Part shown: one piece after another, positions 1-60,358 of the stretch
Layout: the number at the start of each line of letters is the position of its first letter
Numbering within the stretch: the first letter of the stretch is position 1
Origin: an uncultured Gammaproteobacteria bacterium
GTDB lineage: Bacteria > Patescibacteriota > Microgenomatia > UBA8517
Length of the DNA stretch: 64,000 nt
Direction: 5' to 3'
NCBI GenBank assembly: GCA_964489145.1
Contig: CAZAXL010000006.1
Span: forward strand, 1,614 to 65,613
Translations under genes and position numbers: made by a program
The notes under the pieces: model-generated
What the model was told of the DNA's origin: nothing
What the model saw: the letters and a program-made list of their open reading frames with translations, nothing else
Database searches by the model: none

Positions 1-38
1 TGAACTGGAACGGGCCGCTAAATGGGTTAAATAAAGGG

Positions 39-503
39 TTATTTTTTCTTTGTTGAAGCTGTCTTTTTAACCACTTTCTTGACTTTCTCAGGTTTCACTT
101 CTTTTACCTCGACGGAGTCCTTTTTTACGATAGGTGCCGGGGCCAGAATGCTTAAAATTTTGTCAAGCTTGGCATTAACAGCATCAAGCTGAGCCTTGTT
201 TTGATCAAAACTTGGAGCGGGAGACCTAAAATTACCTCTTTCAGGCCTTCCTGAATCCGATCTTCCACCATTCATTTTTTCAAAACACTCACTGCAATAA
301 ACCGGCTTGCCGTTTGTCGGCTTGAAAGGTACCTGGCATTCTTTTCCGCAGTTGCTGCAGACTGTTTGGAACATTTCGCGTCTGCCTCTATCTTCACCAA
401 AAGAAGATCTTCCTCTTCCTGAAAATCCACCGCGTCCTCCGCCTCGGCCAAAGCCGCCACGGTATCCGCCGGATCTGTCATCATCTCTATTAAAATTTCC
501 CAT
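39..503 (-). CDS. RG/RGG-rich protein with CxxC-x16-CxxC zinc ribbon (zf-trcl-like) and lysine-rich tail; putative nucleic-acid-binding
   Basis: GGYRGGFGRGGGRGGFSGRGR repeats; CSNCGKEC...YCSECF zinc ribbon; KKVVKKTASTKKK tail. Confidence 0.5.
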   Translation of the reverse strand: MGNFNRDDDRSGGYRGGFGRGGGRGGFSGRGRSSFGEDRGRREMFQTVCSNCGKECQVPFKPTNGKPVYCSECFEKMNGGRSDSGRPERGNFRSPAPSFDQNKAQLDAVNAKLDKILSILAPAPIVKKDSVEVKEVKPEKVKKVVKKTASTKKK

Positions 504-552
504 AGTGTTTATTATATCACAGGTTGTGTTTTATTGTTGGGGCACTTTGTGG

Positions 553-948
553 CTATTTTTCCACTTCAAACCAGTCAATTGGAGATTGGTCTTCCGGTTC
601 GCCATTATAGTTGACAGTGATTTCTTCATCTTTTTTGATGGGTCTAATGGCGCGGTAAACCATACATTGGGTTTTAAAGTTTTGCTTCCAATCGGCATTG
701 GGAGAGTAGGAATGGTTATAGATTGATCCGTAACCAAAAGCCAGAGCGGCTCCGCGGGTACTTCGCCAGGGATAAATGTAATGGCTGAGCGGGGTTTTTT
801 CCAGATTTTTGCGGTCGGTTGGTGTGAAAACCAAAACCGGCGCACTTTCAACTATTTCTCCGTCTTTGATATCTCTGGCCGCAAAAACCCCAAGACCTTT
901 TTTGGAGGTTCTTTTTAGATAAACGTTTTTATTCATAGCTTTGATCAT
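553..948 (-). CDS. SET-domain protein (putative protein-lysine methyltransferase)
   Basis: GLGVFAARDIKDGEIV, YNHSYSPNADW (NHSxxPN) and C-terminal EEITVNYN motifs typical of SET domains. Confidence 0.75.
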   Translation of the reverse strand: MIKAMNKNVYLKRTSKKGLGVFAARDIKDGEIVESAPVLVFTPTDRKNLEKTPLSHYIYPWRSTRGAALAFGYGSIYNHSYSPNADWKQNFKTQCMVYRAIRPIKKDEEITVNYNGEPEDQSPIDWFEVEK

Positions 949-998
949 CCCTTCGATGTGTCTCGGGGTGCTCCTGAATACTGTTATAATACATCACT

Positions 999-1026
999 AT
1001 GAAAACTTGGCAAAGAATCAAAAACG
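999..1026 (+). repeat. 28-bp perfect direct-repeat copy of the epmA 5' end (atgaaaacttggcaaagaatcaaaaacg), preceded by a TATAAT; encodes a 16-aa remnant (MKTWQRIKNGKGLSFF*)
   Basis: Identical to 2452..2479; lies in the SET/AAA intergenic gap. Confidence 0.9.
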
Positions 1027-1035
1027 GTAAGGGGC

Positions 1036-2391
1036 TTAGCTTTTTTTGATCCAAGCTAAGTAATTATTCAAGGAAGGTGCATTAGTTACACTAGCTTCAT
1101 CTGAGATCAATTTTGAAGCCCAACTTCTTTCTGTCCTCTCGCAAAGATTTTTAATATCCCTTCCCGACAAACCCTCCGCTTCTTGAGCCAGCATTACCAG
1201 CCCCTCCTCGCTTAAATGGGTGGCATAATTTCCGAAAATAACCTGTCTTTCTTTTGTGTCTGGAAGCGGAAATTCAATATTTGTATCAAATCTGCTTAGA
1301 AGTGCCGGGTCCAAATCTTTTTTTCGGTTGGTAGCACCAATTAAAATTGTTTTTTCATTGGGATTAAAGCCGTCAATATTTCTTAATAAAACCGATAAGA
1401 CTCTTCTTGTTTCCTCATGGATATCTCCGTCTCTTGTAGTTGCTAAAGAATCAATTTCATCCAAAAAAAGCAAGGCGTTTCCCAGGCTCTTGCATTCATT
1501 GAAAATTGTTGCCAAATTATTTTCACTTTCTCCGTACCATTTAGACATAATACTTTCTATAGGTACATAAATTAAAGGCGCATCAACTTGCCCTGCAATT
1601 ATTCTTGCCATTGTCGTTTTTCCGGTTCCCGGCGGGCCTTCAAATAGAACTGCTTTTGGCCTATTAGATTCATAAATCCTTCTGGTTTTTTTGGCAATTT
1701 GTTCATAGATTTCCGGGTGCTTAAGAGTAAGAACTACGGTTTCTTTAACCTGCTCTTTTATGCTTTCATATCCTGCTAGGTAGTCCCAGTCGGGAGCATC
1801 CTCCGGATTAAAAATTGTTGCCCCCAAAGATTCGAGAACTTTTTTGGGATCGGATTTCTTTTCGGAAAAAGGATTAGCGAGTTTATAGGCGTTAATAAGT
1901 GCTTCTATCTCCTGTACCTCCAAATCGTTATCTTTCGAAAATTCTATTGACCCGGGAAGATAGGATTTGGGCATTCTTAACCAGATTTTTAAGCCATTCT
2001 TTTTATATAAGTGAATATGGTCAGAAAAGGTTGCATAGGATGACAGTTCCAAGTCTCCCACGGTTTTTGTTATCTCGATAAGAAGAGGGAACATGTCCAC
2101 CTTACCGGCTACATCGAACTTGATATTGGAAGAGTTCTTTTCTCTTGAAAAAGAAACCAGGGGCAAATCATTATTTCCTGTTTCTTCGCCGTACTTAAGC
2201 CTAGCAGTTTCGATAATGTCTTTTGTTTGATGATAGGTAAAAGGCTTTTCCGTCAGTTTTTCTACCGGTTCTGTTGACGGCTCTGGGAGAATTACCTCAT
2301 CGGCGCAAGCTGGGGGATTGGCGGCAGGCTTGTCACCTTGGAATTTTTCCTTTAACCTTTCCAACATATTATATAGAATTATATCATACAA
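1036..2391 (-). CDS. AAA+ ATPase (classic AAA family: Walker A/B plus SRH) with ~230-aa N-terminal domain of unknown function
   Basis: GPPGTGKTTMARIIAG, LLFLDEIDSL, ATNRKKDLDPALLSRFD; ORF starts at TTG 2391, first in-frame ATG at 2367. Confidence 0.8.
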   Translation of the reverse strand: MYDIILYNMLERLKEKFQGDKPAANPPACADEVILPEPSTEPVEKLTEKPFTYHQTKDIIETARLKYGEETGNNDLPLVSFSREKNSSNIKFDVAGKVDMFPLLIEITKTVGDLELSSYATFSDHIHLYKKNGLKIWLRMPKSYLPGSIEFSKDNDLEVQEIEALINAYKLANPFSEKKSDPKKVLESLGATIFNPEDAPDWDYLAGYESIKEQVKETVVLTLKHPEIYEQIAKKTRRIYESNRPKAVLFEGPPGTGKTTMARIIAGQVDAPLIYVPIESIMSKWYGESENNLATIFNECKSLGNALLFLDEIDSLATTRDGDIHEETRRVLSVLLRNIDGFNPNEKTILIGATNRKKDLDPALLSRFDTNIEFPLPDTKERQVIFGNYATHLSEEGLVMLAQEAEGLSGRDIKNLCERTERSWASKLISDEASVTNAPSLNNYLAWIKKS

Positions 2392-2451
2392 TATCAGTAC
2401 TGCCTACCATATCGTTTGTTTTTCTCCGGTTAATCAATATAATGATTAGAT

Positions 2452-3411
2452 ATGAAAACTTGGCAAAGAATCAAAAACGACCCAAACCTGATGGAGAAAT
2501 ATCTTGTTCGGGAAAGGGTTGTTGATACAATCCGTTCCTTTTTCAAAAATCAGGGTTTCCATGAGGTTTTTACGCCAATTTTGGTGCCCATCCCCTCGAT
2601 TGAACCCAACCTTGAAGTGTTTGAGTCAGAATTAAGAACTTCGAAAGGGGAAAAACGCAGAGCCTTTTTAATAATGAGCCCGGAGTTTTCTATTAAAAAA
2701 CTTTTGGCAGGAGGAATCGGAAATTGTTTTGAAATTACAAGATGTTTTAGAAATGAGGAAGAAACAAGCCGTCTCCATAATCCCGAATTTACCATGCTTG
2801 AATGGTATAGGATTAATGCCGGCTATAAGGATATTATGAAAGATTTTGAACACTTATTTTTGAAAATTATCGGTAAAGATAAATTGGAATATCAAGGTGA
2901 AGTTTACGATCTTTCTCTTCCCTGGCCGAAAATTAGGATTTCTGACGCCTTTAAAAAATATGCGGGAAAAGATGTTTTAAAAGTACAGGATGCGGACTTT
3001 TATAAAATCTATTTTAATGAAATAGAACCGGAACTTTTGAAAATGAAAAAGCCGTATTTTATTTACGATTATCCGATTTCTCAAGCATCTTTGTCTAAAC
3101 CCGCTAAAGATCCTAGATTTTCTGAAAGATTTGAGGTTTTTCTTGGCGGGGTTGAATTTGGAAATTGTTTTTCCGAACTGACTGATGCCAAGGAACAGAA
3201 AAAGAGATTTGAGACAGAGAAAAAAGACAGAGAAAGAATGAACAAGACAGAGTACCCGATAGACGAAGATTTAATTGAGGCTTTAAAGGAAGGCATCCCC
3301 GCCGTTTCCGGCATCGCCGTGGGTGTAGATAGGCTCGTCATGCTCGCTGCCGACGCTTCTTCAATTGAGGAAACACTGTTCTTTCCGGGAAAAGAGCTAT
3401 TTGACCTTTAG
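2452..3411 (+). CDS. epmA: EF-P--(R)-beta-lysine ligase (lysyl-tRNA synthetase class II paralog)
   Basis: RCFRNEE, HNPEFTMLEWY, GGVEFGNCFSELTD, GVDRLVMLAA motifs; immediately upstream of efp; TATAAT 10 nt upstream of ATG. Confidence 0.8.
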   Translation: MKTWQRIKNDPNLMEKYLVRERVVDTIRSFFKNQGFHEVFTPILVPIPSIEPNLEVFESELRTSKGEKRRAFLIMSPEFSIKKLLAGGIGNCFEITRCFRNEEETSRLHNPEFTMLEWYRINAGYKDIMKDFEHLFLKIIGKDKLEYQGEVYDLSLPWPKIRISDAFKKYAGKDVLKVQDADFYKIYFNEIEPELLKMKKPYFIYDYPISQASLSKPAKDPRFSERFEVFLGGVEFGNCFSELTDAKEQKKRFETEKKDRERMNKTEYPIDEDLIEALKEGIPAVSGIAVGVDRLVMLAADASSIEETLFFPGKELFDL

Positions 3412-3440
3412 TACCTCCTAAGCTTAGAATACGCATATCC

Positions 3441-4007
3441 ATGAACACAATTAACGCGGGCAACATTACAAAAGGGAGCTTTATTATTTTTAAAGGAGTG
3501 CCTGTTTTTATAACCAAGGCTGAGTTTATGTCTCCCGGAAAAGGCTCTCCCGTTATGAGAATCAAATTCAAAAATGTCCAAACAGGAGCCGCGGGGGAGT
3601 TTACCTATAAAACCGGAGAAAGCGTCGAGGTTGCAGAAATCGAGAAAAAAGAAATGGAATATCTATACCGGGATGGGGAAGAGTTGGTTTTTATGAATCC
3701 GAAATCATATGATCAGGTTAGTATCCCGATGGGTCTTATTGACGACCAGTTTGGCTATTTAACCCCAAATCTTAAATGTTGGATTGTTTGGTATAAAGGT
3801 AGCCCCATTGGCGCAACGCTCCCTTCCCATGTAACTTTAAAAGTGACGGAATCTCCTGATGAGGTTGTCGGGAATAGAATCAATGCTCCCAAAAAGACGG
3901 TGAAACTTGAAACAGGAATCGAAGCTCAAGTTCCATTGTTTATTAAAGTCGGAGAAAAAGTGCAGCTCGATACCACAACCGGAGAATATTTGGGAAGGGT
4001 TAAATAA
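3441..4007 (+). CDS. efp: Elongation factor P
   Basis: AEFMSPGKGSPVMRIKFKNVQTG aligns with the EF-P loop carrying the modified Lys (PGKG). Confidence 0.9.
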   Translation: MNTINAGNITKGSFIIFKGVPVFITKAEFMSPGKGSPVMRIKFKNVQTGAAGEFTYKTGESVEVAEIEKKEMEYLYRDGEELVFMNPKSYDQVSIPMGLIDDQFGYLTPNLKCWIVWYKGSPIGATLPSHVTLKVTESPDEVVGNRINAPKKTVKLETGIEAQVPLFIKVGEKVQLDTTTGEYLGRVK

Positions 4008-4025
4008 TAGGTTAAAATGTAGGGA

Positions 4026-5516
4026 ATGTCCCTTTTACCAATTATCCTGATAGCCGCCCCTTTTGTTCTATTTTTAATACTTCTTCTTTGGAAGAGAACA
4101 CCGCTTATTTGGGTTTCTCTGATTACATTAGTCCTGATAATTGTTTTAGCAATTTTCTATTGGCAAGTTTATCCAGCATATATTTTAGGGTCTCTGGCTA
4201 AAGGATTCTTTGTAGCCCTTGATATATTTTTTATTATTTTTGGCGCAATCCTTTTTTTGGAAATTATGCGGGAGACAAAAATTATCGAAAATATCGGCTA
4301 CCATTTGGAATCCATTTCGAGAGATCTTCGTGTACAGGTAATATTTCTGGCCTGGTTTTTTGAGAATTTTCTGGAAGGGACAGCCGGATTTGGAACCCCT
4401 TCGATAGTTGTTGCCCCTCTTCTGGTTGGCCTTGGAATTCCCCCTATTGATGCTGTAATAATTGCAATTTTGGGCAACAGCGCCTCGGGTGTTTTTGGCG
4501 CTGCGGGAACTCCTATTAAAGTTGGTTTTGGGGCTCTTGCCGGAGCCTCGGTTCCTTTCACTGCGGCACTTGTTAATTCGATTGGAATTTTGGTGCCGGT
4601 TTTTATGCTCTGGTTTTTAACTAGAAAAAAAGAGAACGGCAGGAAAGAATTTATTGAGGCACTTCCTTTTGCCGTTTGGGCAGGAGTTGCCTTTGCGGTT
4701 CCATCAATACTAACTGTTTTTATAGGTCAGGAATTTCCATCGATTTTGGGGGCGGTAATTGGCCTTGCCTTGGTGCTTTTAACTACAAAGTTGGGCATTT
4801 TTACACCGAAGGTGGAAAAAGAACTTGTGGATATACCGCGACCAGCCACGCTCTCATTGGGCAAGGTAATATTTCCTTATTTACTCCTAATAGTAATCTT
4901 GGTTGCTGGCAAGTTTATCCTCGGAACTTCAGGAATATCAATCCCAATCATTATTAAACATACATTTGCGTATTTTAATCCCGGTTTTGCCTTTATCATT
5001 GCAGGAATAGTGACTTTGTTAGCATTTAAAAAAGATATTAATTTTTTTGGATCTTCCGTAAAGTTGGCCTTTAAAAGATCGCTGGAACCGTTTTGGGTGA
5101 TAGTTTTTATGTCTGCAATCTCGCAGATAATGGTTACTTCAGTCAATAATTTAAACGCTTTTCCATCGATGATCGACTTTCTGGCAGTTTATTTTAGAAA
5201 CACTTTTCTTCCGCTTTGGGCTCCTGTCATAGGAGCTTTTGGGAGTTTTCTTACAGGAAGCATAACTGTTTCCAATCTGATGTTTGGCAACTTTTTTGTT
5301 GCTGCTGCAAACGATTTGAGTTTTGGCAGCGATAAAATTTTGGTACTTGCTCTTGTTGGGGCAGCAGCGGGAAACATGATTGCACTTGCCGATATAATGG
5401 CAGCGGAAGCTGCTGTAGGACTTAAAAACGAGGAAAGGAACGTATTAAAGGGGGTAATTTTACCGTGTTTAATTTATGTCGGATTGGTCGGTCTTGTAGG
5501 GATGTTTATTTTATAG
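4026..5516 (+). CDS. L-lactate permease family (LctP) transporter
   Basis: Polytopic membrane protein; ENFLEGTAGFGTPSIVVAPLLVGLG matches the LctP signature LEGAAGFGAPVAI. Confidence 0.65.
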   Translation: MSLLPIILIAAPFVLFLILLLWKRTPLIWVSLITLVLIIVLAIFYWQVYPAYILGSLAKGFFVALDIFFIIFGAILFLEIMRETKIIENIGYHLESISRDLRVQVIFLAWFFENFLEGTAGFGTPSIVVAPLLVGLGIPPIDAVIIAILGNSASGVFGAAGTPIKVGFGALAGASVPFTAALVNSIGILVPVFMLWFLTRKKENGRKEFIEALPFAVWAGVAFAVPSILTVFIGQEFPSILGAVIGLALVLLTTKLGIFTPKVEKELVDIPRPATLSLGKVIFPYLLLIVILVAGKFILGTSGISIPIIIKHTFAYFNPGFAFIIAGIVTLLAFKKDINFFGSSVKLAFKRSLEPFWVIVFMSAISQIMVTSVNNLNAFPSMIDFLAVYFRNTFLPLWAPVIGAFGSFLTGSITVSNLMFGNFFVAAANDLSFGSDKILVLALVGAAAGNMIALADIMAAEAAVGLKNEERNVLKGVILPCLIYVGLVGLVGMFIL

Positions 5517-5520
5517 ACGG

Positions 5521-6378
5521 TTAACACCTTACGTCTCCACCGCAATGTTGACAGTTGCTTATAAGCTGCCCAAAAGGCCTTGTATTTGCCCTTCCGCATT
5601 TGGGACAAGTAAAGCTAAGGGAACCATATTTATCCTCAAGTCCGGTTAAGTTCAAAGTTAAGGAACTGCTTTCAAGAGACGAAACGGATAGGGATCCGCT
5701 ACAACTGACAGAAGATTTACCGACAAGTCCTTTCTCCCGCATTTCGTCGGCAATAAACTTGGCATTAACTCCCGAATGAATCAAATCGACAAAATGGTGG
5801 ATCAATTCATGGTTTGGGAGAGGGATATTATTTGCTTTAGTGCCTATTAACTCTAAAAGATTTCCTAAATAAAAATCTCCATCAACTATAAAAAGTTTAT
5901 TTCTTAATACTTCAGGGTCTTTAATTCCGGCAAAAACAGGGTTTAACTTTGTTGCAACTTCCAAGGTGTGATCTTTGGCTGTGTCAAAAAGCACGGTCAC
6001 ATTAAAAGTGGTTTTTTCTCCCAAAGTGGTTTCTTCTATTTGGTACATGGTGATTTTGTTGCATGGGTAGACAGAGTCGTATGACGGACTGATCCAGAGG
6101 GCTGTGCCCGACGGATTTTCCGATACCCAGGACGTTAATGTGTTAAGAAGTTCCGCATCTTTTTGGCCAAGGTAGGAAGATGTGTTGATTTTAATCTCCG
6201 TGTCGGTTTGAAAATCGAGCAGTATTCCATTTTTATATCTGAATTTATATTCATCAGGTTTTCTATGGGTTTCGTTAAATGTACTTATTAGTTCTTCTCT
6301 TAAACGGTCCGGTTTGGTGTATCTCCAAGAGGGGATAAACTTTTCGATTGTTTTTGTTGGAGACTCTATATGTGACAT
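5521..6378 (-). CDS. Hypothetical protein with HExxH motif and C-terminal CxxC...CxxC zinc ribbon
   Basis: NHELIHHFVDLIH; CPKCGRANTRPFGQLISNCQHCGG. Confidence 0.4.
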   Translation of the reverse strand: MSHIESPTKTIEKFIPSWRYTKPDRLREELISTFNETHRKPDEYKFRYKNGILLDFQTDTEIKINTSSYLGQKDAELLNTLTSWVSENPSGTALWISPSYDSVYPCNKITMYQIEETTLGEKTTFNVTVLFDTAKDHTLEVATKLNPVFAGIKDPEVLRNKLFIVDGDFYLGNLLELIGTKANNIPLPNHELIHHFVDLIHSGVNAKFIADEMREKGLVGKSSVSCSGSLSVSSLESSSLTLNLTGLEDKYGSLSFTCPKCGRANTRPFGQLISNCQHCGGDVRC

Positions 6379-14213: not shown

Positions 14214-14893
14214 TTTTTTACACAAACCCCGCCCGCGTCCGGATATTTTCCATCAAGCTGACATTTATACCCCGCAGGACAAGAAACTCCTGCGAATCCG
14301 CCACAGAATTTTTCCTCAGTGTTTGATTGATCAGTGAATTTAAAAGTGGAGAGGATTTTGTAGAATTTAGAACCATCCCCATTATATTCATCCTCAGGAT
14401 AAGTAGCAGTAGTTAAAACAGCAATAATCTTGCTTTCTTTGGCTATGTAATAATGAGAAAAACTGCCGCCACCTTCGTCAAACTCCTCGGCCAGATAGGT
14501 GTTATAACCACTAATTTTTAGTGAACTCTCATTTTTATTATCTAAATCTTGAATATCTTTATAAAACGGGTTTGCAAAGTCAATTTCGATACTTGGAGTT
14601 GTTTCGTTATTAAGAATTGTTATTAAATCTTTATTAAAATTTATTCCATTAACCGTGGCTTTACCGGTATCCTCTGTTAATTCCCAGTTATTAGGATATT
14701 GAATTTGAAAATGGTGTTTGCTGTTGTTGTATGTTTCCCAATTTACAGTTGGGTCAGAAGTGGCTGAAGCAGTTGGGGAAGGGGTTGATGTGAAAGTTGG
14801 AGTTGGCCAGTAGTTTTTATAGCCGATATACCCAACTGCAACCAGAGCTGCAAAAAACAGAATTATTATTGGTGCAAAACCTCTTTGTTTCAT
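14210..14893 (-). CDS. Secreted/membrane-anchored paralog 1 (N-terminal TM, Ser/Thr/Pro linker, Cys-rich C-terminus)
   Basis: Shares ATSDPTVNWETY and ILSTFKFTD blocks with the downstream paralog; CGGFAGVSCPAGYKCQLDGKYPDAGGVCVKN tail. Confidence 0.5.
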   Translation of the reverse strand: MKQRGFAPIIILFFAALVAVGYIGYKNYWPTPTFTSTPSPTASATSDPTVNWETYNNSKHHFQIQYPNNWELTEDTGKATVNGINFNKDLITILNNETTPSIEIDFANPFYKDIQDLDNKNESSLKISGYNTYLAEEFDEGGGSFSHYYIAKESKIIAVLTTATYPEDEYNGDGSKFYKILSTFKFTDQSNTEEKFCGGFAGVSCPAGYKCQLDGKYPDAGGVCVKN

Positions 14894-15918
14894 TTATATA
14901 GTTGTTTGATTTGAGTTAAGGTGTCTTCACATTTCGGATTATCCGGTGCCATGCCAGTAGAACAAGCTGAAACCCAAATTATGTAGCTTTTGGCGGCGTG
15001 GAGAGGATAATAAGCGCCTGCCTCACAGGTCGTGAATTTAGCAATATCTCCCGCGGAAAAGAAGTCAAAACTGCCTGTATAAGCCAGGTGAACGCCATCA
15101 ATTTCCCTGACAAAGACGTCGGTTTCAGCTACTGCACTTTTTAGATTAACAGAAACGTCCGGTTCGTTTAAGCATTTACTCCAAGATAATCGAGATTGGC
15201 TTTTTTCGTATAACTCCAAGTCTTCAACCCGCGACTTTAGATTTGTTGTTTCGGGATCGGTGAACTTAAAAGTGGAGAGAATTTGAAGAATGGTAGACTT
15301 TTCTTTTTGATACTCCTCTAATGAGGCATCATCATCAGCGTTTACAGGATAACCACTCCCAAACATAACGGCGTAGGATATTCCACTAACATCGACATAC
15401 TGGTTCACATAAACTGAGTGATTTTCCACAATAGTCTCTACGGCGGAATATTCTTTTCCAACAAATGAGAATTTTATGGCATTCTTTATCGTCTTAGTGT
15501 TACCAGAAAACCCATACGTTGAAGAGAACGGTGTTACCTCAATAGAAACTACGCCGGTGGGGTTATCTATGGTTATTTCTTGACCTTCGAAGTAATCACT
15601 GTAATGTTCCCTAACACTCCAGCCGGAAGGGTATTTAAACTGGAACTCTTTACCGCTATGTGTTTCCCAATTTACAGTTGGGTCAGAAGTGGCTGAAACA
15701 GTTGGGGATGAGGTTGGTAGCGCGGCAATTTGTTTTTTAAGTTGAGAGTTCTGATAGAACAGGAATACGATAGTTCCCAAAAGCAAAACTATCAGGACAA
15801 ACATCAAAGTAACTAGTTTTGTGGAGCTCGACTTGACTGGCGTTGTGTTTTCGGGAATGTTATTTATCGGAGGAAAATTGCTGCTTGGTGTGGGTGTCTG
15901 GACGGGATTTTGCTCCAT
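14890..15918 (-). CDS. Secreted/membrane-anchored paralog 2
   Basis: SATSDPTVNWETH and ILSTFKFTD shared with paralog 1; ATGA overlap with 14210..14893. Confidence 0.5.
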   Translation of the reverse strand: MEQNPVQTPTPSSNFPPINNIPENTTPVKSSSTKLVTLMFVLIVLLLGTIVFLFYQNSQLKKQIAALPTSSPTVSATSDPTVNWETHSGKEFQFKYPSGWSVREHYSDYFEGQEITIDNPTGVVSIEVTPFSSTYGFSGNTKTIKNAIKFSFVGKEYSAVETIVENHSVYVNQYVDVSGISYAVMFGSGYPVNADDDASLEEYQKEKSTILQILSTFKFTDPETTNLKSRVEDLELYEKSQSRLSWSKCLNEPDVSVNLKSAVAETDVFVREIDGVHLAYTGSFDFFSAGDIAKFTTCEAGAYYPLHAAKSYIIWVSACSTGMAPDNPKCEDTLTQIKQLYK

Positions 15919-59256: not shown

Positions 59257-59267
59257 ATGTTGATATG

Positions 59268-59339
59268 TGAGCCCTCTGGGACTCGAACCCAGAACCGCTT
59301 CCTTAAAAGGGAATTGCTCTACCATTGAGCTAAGGGCCC
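59268..59339 (-). tRNA. tRNA-Lys (anticodon UUU); CCA not encoded
   Basis: GGGCCCT-TA-GCTC-AATGGTA-GAGC-ATTCC-CTTTTAA-GGAAG-..-CTGGG-TTCGAGT-CCCAG-AGGGCTC-A. Confidence 0.8.
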
Positions 59340-59358
59340 TCATGGGGCACCTTGGATA

Positions 59359-59394
59359 AATGGCAAGATATTCTTACCATTGAGCTAAGGGCCC
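59359..59394 (-). other. tRNA-Lys 5' fragment (20-22 nt identical to the tRNA-Lys 5' end) fused to a 9-bp hairpin (AATGGTAAG/CTTGCCATT), ~20 nt upstream of tRNA-Lys
   Basis: GGGCCCTTAGCTCAATGGTA-AGAATATCTTGCCATT in tRNA orientation. Confidence 0.6.
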
Positions 59395-59443
59395 GCGTAA
59401 GCTCATATTTTACTCGTTTAGAGGTAATTCCTCAAGCTGGAGG

Positions 59444-60088
59444 TTAGACTCTTTCTTTTGATAGCCGTGTGGAAGTTTCTAATTCGATCTCAGGAATGGT
59501 TTTTTCAGCATTAACTACTATCAATCTGTCCTCGATTGCCAGCCTTTCTATTAGTGGTCTGGTTAACTCATGGAAAGTTCTTAACTTTTTCTCGACCGAT
59601 TCCGGCCTGTCATCGTCCCTGGGAAGTAGGCCACTGGCTTTGGCAATATCATTTCTCATTTTAGATCTTTCTCTGGTAGTTTCATCGGAAACCGGATAAT
59701 AAATATAGTGGGGGATTATTTCAAAATCTTTGGACATTTCGATGAACATATCATCCACCAGATTTAACTGAGTAACAGTTCTGGGAAATCCTGTAAACAG
59801 GAAAGTGGTAATGCCGTTTTCGGTCTTTTCCAGAAGTACCTCTTTTACTATTTTGACGATTGGCTCATCCGGAATATAGCCTCCGGAATCGACATTGGCA
59901 ATATAAGGTTCCAAAACGCTGTGATATTTGGCAAAATCTCCGACACAATCTCTTGCCCCTCTATAAATTTCCCCCGTGGAGAGTTTTATGGAGTCTTGCA
60001 ACTTTTCAAGCAGAAGATTCGCCTGTGTATCTTTGCCAGACCCACCCTTGCCGATAAAAAAGATAAATTTTAGAGGTGCTCTTTCCAT
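59444..60088 (-). CDS. adk: Adenylate kinase family nucleoside-monophosphate kinase
   Basis: GKGGSGKDTQA P-loop, LFTGFPRTVTQ; start moved to MERAPLKF (ATG 60088). Confidence 0.75.
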   Translation of the reverse strand: MERAPLKFIFFIGKGGSGKDTQANLLLEKLQDSIKLSTGEIYRGARDCVGDFAKYHSVLEPYIANVDSGGYIPDEPIVKIVKEVLLEKTENGITTFLFTGFPRTVTQLNLVDDMFIEMSKDFEIIPHYIYYPVSDETTRERSKMRNDIAKASGLLPRDDDRPESVEKKLRTFHELTRPLIERLAIEDRLIVVNAEKTIPEIELETSTRLSKERV

Positions 60089-60184
60089 AATGGGAATATA
60101 GCGGGGAAGTCCAAAATAATCAAGATGAGACAAGCTCGCGGTTTTTGGAAAACTGGTATAAAATACACATGCCAGACAGAACAT

Positions 60185-60219
60185 TGGGGAGTCGTCTAAT
60201 GGTAAGGAAACCTTGCCAT
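60185..60219 (+). other. tRNA-Gln 5' fragment (20 nt identical to the tRNA-Gln 5' end) fused to a hairpin (AATGGTAAG..CTTGCCAT), 27 nt upstream of tRNA-Gln
   Basis: TGGGGAGTCGTCTAATGGTA-AGGAAACCTTGCCAT; tail homologous to the Lys fragment tail. Confidence 0.6.
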
Positions 60220-60245
60220 CAGCCTTCCAGTTTTAGTTTTAATAT

Positions 60246-60317
60246 TGGGGAGTCGTCTAATGGTAGGACAGCAGCCTTTGAAGCTGTTTATTCTAGGTTC
60301 GAATCCTAGCTCCCCAG
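60246..60317 (+). tRNA. tRNA-Gln (anticodon UUG); U1-A72, G73; CCA not encoded
   Basis: TGGGGAG-TC-GTCT-AATGGTA-GGAC-GCAGC-CTTTGAA-GCTGT-TTATT-CTAGG-TTCGAAT-CCTAG-CTCCCCA-G. Confidence 0.8.
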
Positions 60318-60358
60318 CAAAACTTGGAGGCTTACACGCTAGTTAATTTCAAAAAATC

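Follow-up and report, generated by a model that had tools for sequence, protein, structure and literature searches.

The 64,000-nucleotide (nt) stretch analysed here (contig CAZAXL010000006.1, positions 1,614 to 65,613; hereafter the window) comes from a bacterium that groups with Candidatus Woesebacteria, within the Microgenomates of the candidate phyla radiation (CPR), in a scan anchored on epmA, the gene for the EF-P lysine aminoacylase. Near the left end of the window, the gene of an AAA+ ATPase lies between a SET-domain gene and epmA and is bracketed by two identical copies of the first 28 nt of epmA. Comparison with related genomes shows that a 1,453-bp segment with this one AAA+ gene was inserted after nt 28 of epmA, at a locus where SET and epmA stand back-to-back. 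The same comparison shows the exact borders of the insertion, the empty sites in the relatives, and the insert-borne origin of the promoter that now precedes the intact epmA. The principal parts of the locus are as follows.

999..1026, plus strand: left 28-mer, an exact match lying behind the native epmA promoter; the 65 nt that end at 1026 equal the single-copy junction of the nearest other species (L012)

1027..2451, no strand: insert-specific DNA, in which 9 nt and an 84-nt promoter region flank the AAA+ gene; the full insertion of 1,453 bp also counts one repeat copy

1036..2367, minus strand: AAA+ ATPase gene, 443 amino acids (aa) with ATG 2367 as the start, 451 aa with TTG 2391

2452..2479, plus strand: right 28-mer, the first 28 nt of the intact epmA

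2452..3411, plus strand: epmA (TIGR00462), the insertion target

553..948, minus strand: SET-domain gene (Pfam PF00856), the ancestral left neighbour; its start is probably ATG 936, and the JGI call is 127 aa

A reading made from the letters of the window (the sequence-only reading) had reported the 28-mer ATGAAAACTTGGCAAAGAATCAAAAACG at 999-1026 and again at 2452-2479, and this pair is confirmed, with both copies on the plus strand. The exact match is really 29 nt long (998-1026 and 2451-2479), and the similarity reaches 42 nt at 86% identity, at which point it takes in a TATAAT on each side (985-990 and 2438-2443). The copies are spaced 1453 nt apart, and the number of such 28-mer pairs expected by chance is 0 (100 shuffles). 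No third copy was found in the 64-kb window with up to three mismatches allowed; a search of the genome for further copies had been proposed as a check. The TATAAT described before each copy is present, although the spacing to the ATG is 8 nt in both cases instead of the approximately 10 nt first given.

An assembly artefact, i.e., a chimera formed via a shared k-mer, has to be considered with metagenome assemblies, in which short exact repeats can mislead assemblers. Its probability is negligible here. The identical structure, with both repeats intact, occurs in six independently assembled contigs of the same species (L001-L003 and L124-L126; at least 98.8% nt identical), which differ in sample, pipeline, and archive of origin (JGI and ENA), and because six independent assemblies reproduce it, the structure is no product of assembly. 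The AAA+ gene is, in addition, intact and conserved.

Relatives were taken from the epmA-anchored scan of species-representative genomes, and the window proteins were mapped onto the fetched loci. The nearest other species, L012 (Candidatus Woesebacteria UBA8517), is identical to the window at 94% of aa positions in EpmA and at 99% in SET, and its DNA matches the window at 94.3% over the left flank and at ~93% across epmA-efp. SET lies directly beside epmA, without the AAA+ gene, in L012 and in seven further genomes (L013, L014, L015, L017, L018, L019, and L115), whose epmA identity to the window is 83% for L115 and 73-78% for the other six; the DNA between 1027 and 2451 is missing from all eight. 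The junction in L012 consists of the left promoter of the window (65 nt identical), a single 28-mer, and the right-hand epmA continuation of the window. Adding 1,453 bp to an L012-like site thus yields the window. Similarity to L012 is the same on either flank, and no divergent imported tract was found beside the insert.

These alignments bear out the proposal that the repeats mark an insertion junction and not an old tandem duplication, and that the AAA+ gene entered a SET/epmA-efp context, since epmA directly adjoins SET in L012. The same arrangement in relatives with no indel polymorphism had been named as the pattern that would speak against this proposal; one relative (L008) is arranged like the window, yet the presence/absence polymorphism is clear. 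The proposal had further described the sequence upstream of the two -10 boxes as diverged, and this part does not hold. The two upstream stretches have no common copy, the left one being the native sequence found in L012 and the right one being derived from the insert.

The distribution of the AAA+ gene agrees in that epmA relatives form a continuum of identities (99, 94, 83, 80, and 78%), some of them on contigs of 763-770 kb that are nearly whole genomes. All copies of the AAA+ gene found on contigs of this species (~48) encode one and the same protein; among billions of proteins, the closest other relative reaches only 66% identity, with none between 66% and 100%. Because epmA relatives are continuous whereas AAA+ identity drops from 100% to 66%, the near relatives are concluded to lack the gene.

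A second, older scar of the same kind is found in the distant relative L008, where SET, the AAA+ gene, and epmA are ordered and oriented as in the window. L008 also has a duplicate of the start of its own epmA, which ends at nt 30 and is placed between SET and the AAA+ stop. The two L008 copies differ at 6/30 positions, and a TATAAT or TATAGT stands 8 nt before the ATG in both. The intergenic stretch between the AAA+ gene and epmA is homologous in the window and L008 (80% identity in aligned columns), and because this promoter-bearing stretch is homologous, the two cassettes share an origin. L008 itself falls outside the window lineage, as judged from the epmA tree and SET identities. Identities between the window and L008 are 70% for the AAA+ protein, 74% for EpmA, and 70% for SET at the aa level, and synonymous sites are saturated, with third-position identities of 44-47% in all three genes, so the two occupied alleles must have separated anciently. 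With synonymous sites saturated, a recent exchange of the cassette between the window and L008 is unsupported, and a joint transfer of SET with the AAA+ gene was rejected since the L008 SET is closer to those of L017 and L019. As far as these comparisons reach, the type of event predates the window species.

The L008 locus also accommodates a different history, in which a single old insertion in the common ancestor of L008 and the window descended vertically and was repeatedly lost by precise deletion, while gene conversion kept the window repeats identical. Such a history would account for the common order, orientation, and junction (nt 28-30) and for the diverged L008 repeats, as well as for an AAA+ divergence that matches those of epmA and SET with all three genes saturated. 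Deletion between direct repeats would also leave the native promoter in place, as is seen at every empty site. This history is nonetheless unlikely. L008 stands apart from the window lineage and the empty-site genomes L012 and L115 are far closer to the window; occupied sites were found in only two lineages, compared to over 100 epmA clusters at 73-94% identity, which would call for dozens of losses. No AAA+ homologue lies between 66% and 100%, and 0/28 differences between the window copies would be improbable for a pair as old as that of L008 (6/30) without conversion (p about 0.003 by a rough Poisson estimate). Given that the repeats are perfect and that an empty-site neighbor stands at 94%, the window lineage more likely gained the cassette recently, from a donor not yet sampled.

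The persistence of both repeat copies appears to be related to the way in which the control regions of SET and epmA overlap. The relevant features, of which the promoters are predictions, are listed below.

985..990, plus strand: native TATAAT, 8 nt before the left ATG, in a leaderless-type geometry that is conserved at Woesebacteria epmA

986..1013, minus strand: predicted sigma-70-type SET promoter, TTGCCA-N16-TATTAT (promoter scan, 10/12 matches)

999..1049, plus strand: remnant open reading frame (ORF) MKTWQRIKNGKGLSFF*, running antisense into the 3' end of the AAA+ gene

2368..2451, no strand: divergent promoter region brought by the insert, spanning the interval from the AAA+ start to that of epmA

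2438..2443, plus strand: replacement TATAAT of insert origin, 8 nt ahead of the epmA ATG and homologous to the L008 sequence GGTTA-N4-ATATAAT-N8-ATG

2439..2466, minus strand: duplicate promoter geometry TTGCCA-N16-CATTAT facing the AAA+ gene (9/12 matches; prediction only)

A TATAAT-like box is located 6-8 nt (mostly 8) before the epmA ATG in 12 relatives and at both L008 copies, the variants being TAGAAT in L116 and TATAGT at the left copy of L008. On the opposite strand, the predicted SET -35 box corresponds to epmA codons 4-5 (TGG CAA) read in reverse complement, and the predicted SET -10 box shares positions with the epmA TATAAT. The ATG codons of SET and epmA are only ~20 nt apart in several empty-site genomes, where TTGCCA-N16-TATTAT-N7/8-ATG is visible; with spacing this short, the SET promoter must lie within the first epmA codons. 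In several genomes, the SET and epmA starts are each 7-8 nt from a shared AT-rich -10 block, and back-to-back starts of this sort suggest leaderless transcripts.

The motif TTGGCAA is retained in 7/8 SET-adjacent genomes vs 1/5 non-adjacent epmA starts, and third-codon-position conservation over the first 30 nt of epmA is 76%, compared to 49% gene-wide (rank 1/33 bins). In L008, TTGGCAA is retained by the copy facing SET, whereas the other copy, which serves only to encode EpmA, now reads GTGGCAG. The left copy in the window, together with its native block, is thus probably a working SET promoter rather than debris, and the duplication probably serves both genes by leaving epmA intact on the right and retaining the SET promoter on the left. 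The left copy had previously been described as a remnant of 16 codons. The ORF with the translation given above is indeed present; the copy itself is probably no dead remnant, since the predicted SET promoter sits there. As a conserved small protein, the ORF was rejected, because only the duplicated 9-10 residues are common to L008 and the remainder beyond residue 9 is unconserved. For the AAA+ gene itself, the insert-borne region 2368..2451 contains two predicted minus-strand promoters, TAGGCA-N17-TATAAT (2406->2378) and CTGATA-N18-TATAAT (2397->2368).

Outside the SET/epmA locus, genes of the AAA+ family are found in differing contexts in almost every lineage examined. The loci L122 and L009 are 86.6% identical at the nt level over the AAA+ gene and the 48 nt that precede it, whereas even tblastx reveals no relationship between their flanks. 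The L009 gene is bracketed by a 16-nt exact direct repeat, followed by a 60-nt repeat at 71%. Elsewhere, no significant flanking repeats were found: L005 has only 12 nt exact (16/19), which is not significant, and L118 and L119 have none. An epmA remnant was absent from the AAA+ loci L121 and L123. L121 and L118 are 90% identical with a rearranged downstream flank. Downstream of the AAA+ gene, L121 (1653-1836) has the start of a 305-aa gene that in L118 (1892-2040 and 4420-4560) is located upstream of the AAA+ gene; this layout could reflect a tandem or circular arrangement of a ~2.6-kb unit, or a local rearrangement. One subgroup has a conserved hairpin, ctgtctttaaagacag with a T-run after it, directly upstream of the AAA+ start (L009, 5958-5993; L123, about 850-880), which is absent from the window. 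Judged by these comparisons, the AAA+ cargo moves between contexts, and where flanking duplications accompany it their length varies: 28 nt in the window, ~30 nt in L008, ~90-120 nt in L009, and none detectable in L118 and L119.

The locus is best read, with moderate confidence, as an insertion scar whose duplication was driven by the promoter overlap and that was reached by homology-guided recombination of a cassette carrying the 5' end of epmA. Promoter function and the route of integration are the parts that we infer from sequence. In the proposed mechanism, (i) the ancestral SET and epmA would have shared a compact divergent control region, with the SET -35 box inside epmA codons 4-5, such that (ii) both genes could survive an insertion only if the overlapping piece landed on both sides. 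The incoming DNA (iii) would already have borne an epmA 5' end, either as a looped-out circle or as the "occupied allele" of another Woesebacterium, and (iv) a crossover within the unusually conserved 28-30-nt stretch would have been made by host recombination functions, probably after DNA uptake. The result would be (v) a left copy that keeps the native promoter block facing SET, along with a meaningless 16-codon ORF antisense into the AAA+ gene, and (vi) a right copy that restores the epmA frame behind the insert-borne TATAAT. The right-hand promoter is derived from the insert and homologous to that of L008, which fits a cassette-borne epmA 5' end, and neither a free cassette nor a donor was seen. 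Throughout the CPR, com genes are conserved, and Saccharibacteria have been shown to undergo natural transformation by homologous recombination (PMC10633639). This route is preferred over an att core or a transposase cut because the duplication length varies and because the replacement promoter, probably along with the 5' end of the target, came with the insert.

Site-specific integration would treat the 28-mer as an att core, with a recombinase encoded elsewhere acting on a circular AAA+ cassette that carries attP and a replacement promoter. The perfect direct repeats exactly at the insert borders are what such a reaction leaves, the target gene is restored by insert-borne sequence, and the same site is occupied in two distant lineages. 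Against these stand the lack of a recombinase gene in the insert and of any Phage_integrase or resolvase family among the genes called between ~7.5 kb upstream and 10 kb downstream. Dyad symmetry is not evident in the 28-mer, the insert ends have no inverted repeats, and the L009 duplication, ~90-120 nt of unrelated sequence, is unfit for one fixed core. A site-specific origin is therefore distinctly improbable.

The exact repeat, with inner ends that coincide with the borders of insert-specific DNA, would also be expected of a target-site duplication, in which a transposition-like or staggered-break cut 28 nt apart is followed by fill-in repair. Usual transposon duplications are far shorter than 28 nt, and no transposase or terminal inverted repeats are present; in particular, no inverted pair links 1027-1080 with 2400-2451. 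Fill-in of a staggered cut would not account for the imperfect similarity that continues 14 nt past the exact repeat and includes a TATAAT at the same 8-nt spacing, nor for the homologous insert-side sequence in L008. This explanation is accordingly given very little weight.

Several observations weigh against homology-guided insertion into overlapping promoters, some of them against the route and others against the promoters. Only two occupied lineages are known, and the AAA+ gene is as diverged between them as the host genes are, so there is no sign of recent transfer from one to the other. Among the assembled contigs, no donor, circular form, or same-population empty site was seen. A homology of 28-42 nt is near the lower limit for RecA-type recombination, and flanking repeats are absent or non-significant at L005, L118, and L119. 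Promoter activity and leaderless translation are read from consensus matches alone; TAnAAT-N7-9-ATG is only modestly enriched before long ORFs (8/18 vs a 24% background), and the TTGGCAA contrast is small (p about 0.03) and drawn from genomes that are phylogenetically non-independent.

The product of the AAA+ gene has one Cdc48/VCP-D2-like AAA domain preceded by a family-specific N-domain. The gene had been described as the only one between the repeat copies, and it is indeed the sole long ORF there; the length of 451 aa is probably an overestimate, since all homologues start with M-x-E-R/K at a position that favors ATG 2367 over TTG 2391 and hence a protein of 443 aa. The AAA domain matches PF00004 at 1.9e-37, the Walker A and B motifs, GPPGTGKT and LFLDEID, do not vary across the alignment, and the best PDB matches are Cdc48/VCP D2, which places the protein in the classic clade of AAA+ ATPases. 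The N-domain gives a confident structure model that resembles generic alpha+beta folds only. A role as the anti-phage ATPase IetA/IteA was considered and rejected: NF042959 scores 129.7 bits vs a cut-off of 510 and matches the ATPase domain only (as does PADLOC), and the insert lacks the IetA/IteA partner protease gene. Carriage by a phage or virus was likewise rejected, as IMG/VR holds no AAA+ relative and a tblastn search of phage genomes with the N-domain gave no match. The best full-length relatives outside Microgenomates, N-domain included, are from DPANN archaea (Woesearchaeota and Nanoarchaeota) at ~50%. From these sequence matches, the AAA+ gene family is common to ultrasmall symbionts of both domains.

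A broader proposal is that the AAA+ gene constitutes a recombinase-less single-gene cassette of CPR bacteria, with DPANN relatives at ~50%, that spreads by carrying a copy of the highly conserved 5' end of its target and a replacement promoter; host recombination would then insert the cassette without harm to the neighboring genes and leave duplications of variable length, such as 28 nt here and ~100 nt in L009. This proposal is tentative and rather doubtful.

The genes that surround the insert are those of a conserved neighborhood. To the right of epmA lies the following gene.

3441..4007, plus strand: efp, downstream of epmA and a member of the conserved SET/epmA-efp context

The 319-aa epmA product is a genuine EpmA, scoring 304.8 bits with TIGR00462 against a curated equivalog cut-off of 286.9. 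SET, epmA, and efp form a conserved neighborhood in Woesebacteria (L012-L019 and L115; window 936-1001), and the location of SET, which is of the lysine methyltransferase type, beside an EF-P modification gene may reflect a functional link to it. The left side of the locus comprises the SET gene and a zinc-finger gene, and the right side efp and a lactate permease gene. The left flank is variable among strains: in L003, L124, and L125, Pterin_4a and the zinc-finger gene enclose a different gene, YggT. Farther out, L001 (1-2450, i.e., 5-7.5 kb upstream of the window start) contains a defence-like cluster of an N6/N4 DNA methylase, HTH_17, a SMODS nucleotidyltransferase, and HTH_31. PADLOC gave no match for SET, the zinc-finger protein, or a 285-aa ORF, and Rfam gave none across window positions 1-6000.

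Recombination with diverged DNA has left further traces at this locus, which favor the homology-guided route, and possibly also elsewhere in the window. A 440-nt patch that is ~10% divergent separates otherwise identical strains at 3288-3725 (the epmA 3' end, the spacer, and the efp 5' end), and from position 87 to about 5960, L124-L126 differ from the window in this patch only; on this pattern, the patch is a short recombination tract within a 99% identical population. A 1.3-kb tract in the lactate permease gene lctP (4150-5450) is 70-80% identical to L012 and flanked on both sides by sequence at ~94%, and it looks like an imported divergent allele in a recombination mosaic. At 59267-60318, a divergent pair of tRNA genes, tRNA-Lys (minus strand) and tRNA-Gln (plus strand), encloses a minus-strand P-loop kinase-like ORF of ~690 nt, and the tRNA 5' ends are duplicated on the inner side (20 nt exact at 59375-59394; 25 nt at 96% at 60180-60204). 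This locus could represent another insertion scar of this style, and the duplications around the small gene at 59.4-60.1 kb may stem from the same process as that of the AAA+ cassette. Two adjacent minus-strand ORFs of 227 and 342 aa (14329-14787 and 15255-15716) have common stretches of 30-56 nt at 90-95%, ~928 nt apart, and are probably tandem paralogues.

Four kinds of known system resemble the scar to differing extents. Campbell-type or homology-guided integration likewise leaves direct repeats of a stretch shared by insert and target, with a single copy at the empty sites of relatives, needs no recombinase encoded by the element, and allows the repeat length to vary by site (28-42 nt here and ~90-120 nt in L009). 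The present case differs in that the homology is very short and what insert and target have in common is a gene's 5' end, accompanied by a replacement promoter, so that the target stays functional. Integrative elements and genomic islands (attL/attR) share with it the perfect flanking repeats with an identical core, the restored target, and the use of the same site in two distant lineages. Unlike such elements, the insert has no integrase in or near it, which is their defining property, and consists of a single 1.45-kb gene; its target is a 5' end with promoter and not a tRNA or a 3' end, and the other AAA+ loci have no common core. Overlapping divergent promoters are known from compact genomes, and here too the SET and epmA -10 boxes overlap (TATAAT/TATTAT) and the predicted SET -35 box lies in the coding sequence of the neighbor; what differs is that the overlap, if the predicted promoters are active, would explain why the scar needed a duplication. 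Finally, transposon, casposon, and CRISPR-repeat duplications resemble the scar in the direct target duplication at both insert ends and in a length within the CRISPR-repeat range. Transposase, Cas1, terminal inverted repeats, and an array are all lacking, however, imperfect homology extends past the exact repeat, and the fixed short duplication expected of a transposon is contradicted by the lengths observed (28, ~30, and ~90-120 nt, and none in L118 and L119).

On present evidence, the locus is an instructive but fairly ordinary and unsurprising insertion scar, the outcome of a known kind of event. What is newly added is the empty-site proof, the promoter-overlap rationale, the older L008 scar, and the mobility of the cargo between contexts. 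It provides an unusually clean and datable gene gain in an uncultivated CPR bacterium, for which an empty site, an occupied site, and an older decayed scar can be compared, and it illustrates how an insertion is tolerated in a genome so compact that a predicted promoter lies in the first codons of a neighboring gene. It also yields a testable promoter architecture for Woesebacteria, in which a TATAAT would precede the start of back-to-back genes by 8 nt and the -35 box would fall within the coding sequence of the neighbor. If the AAA+ gene is in fact a self-targeting cassette moved by host recombination, it would offer a simple model for single-gene gain in small symbiotic genomes.

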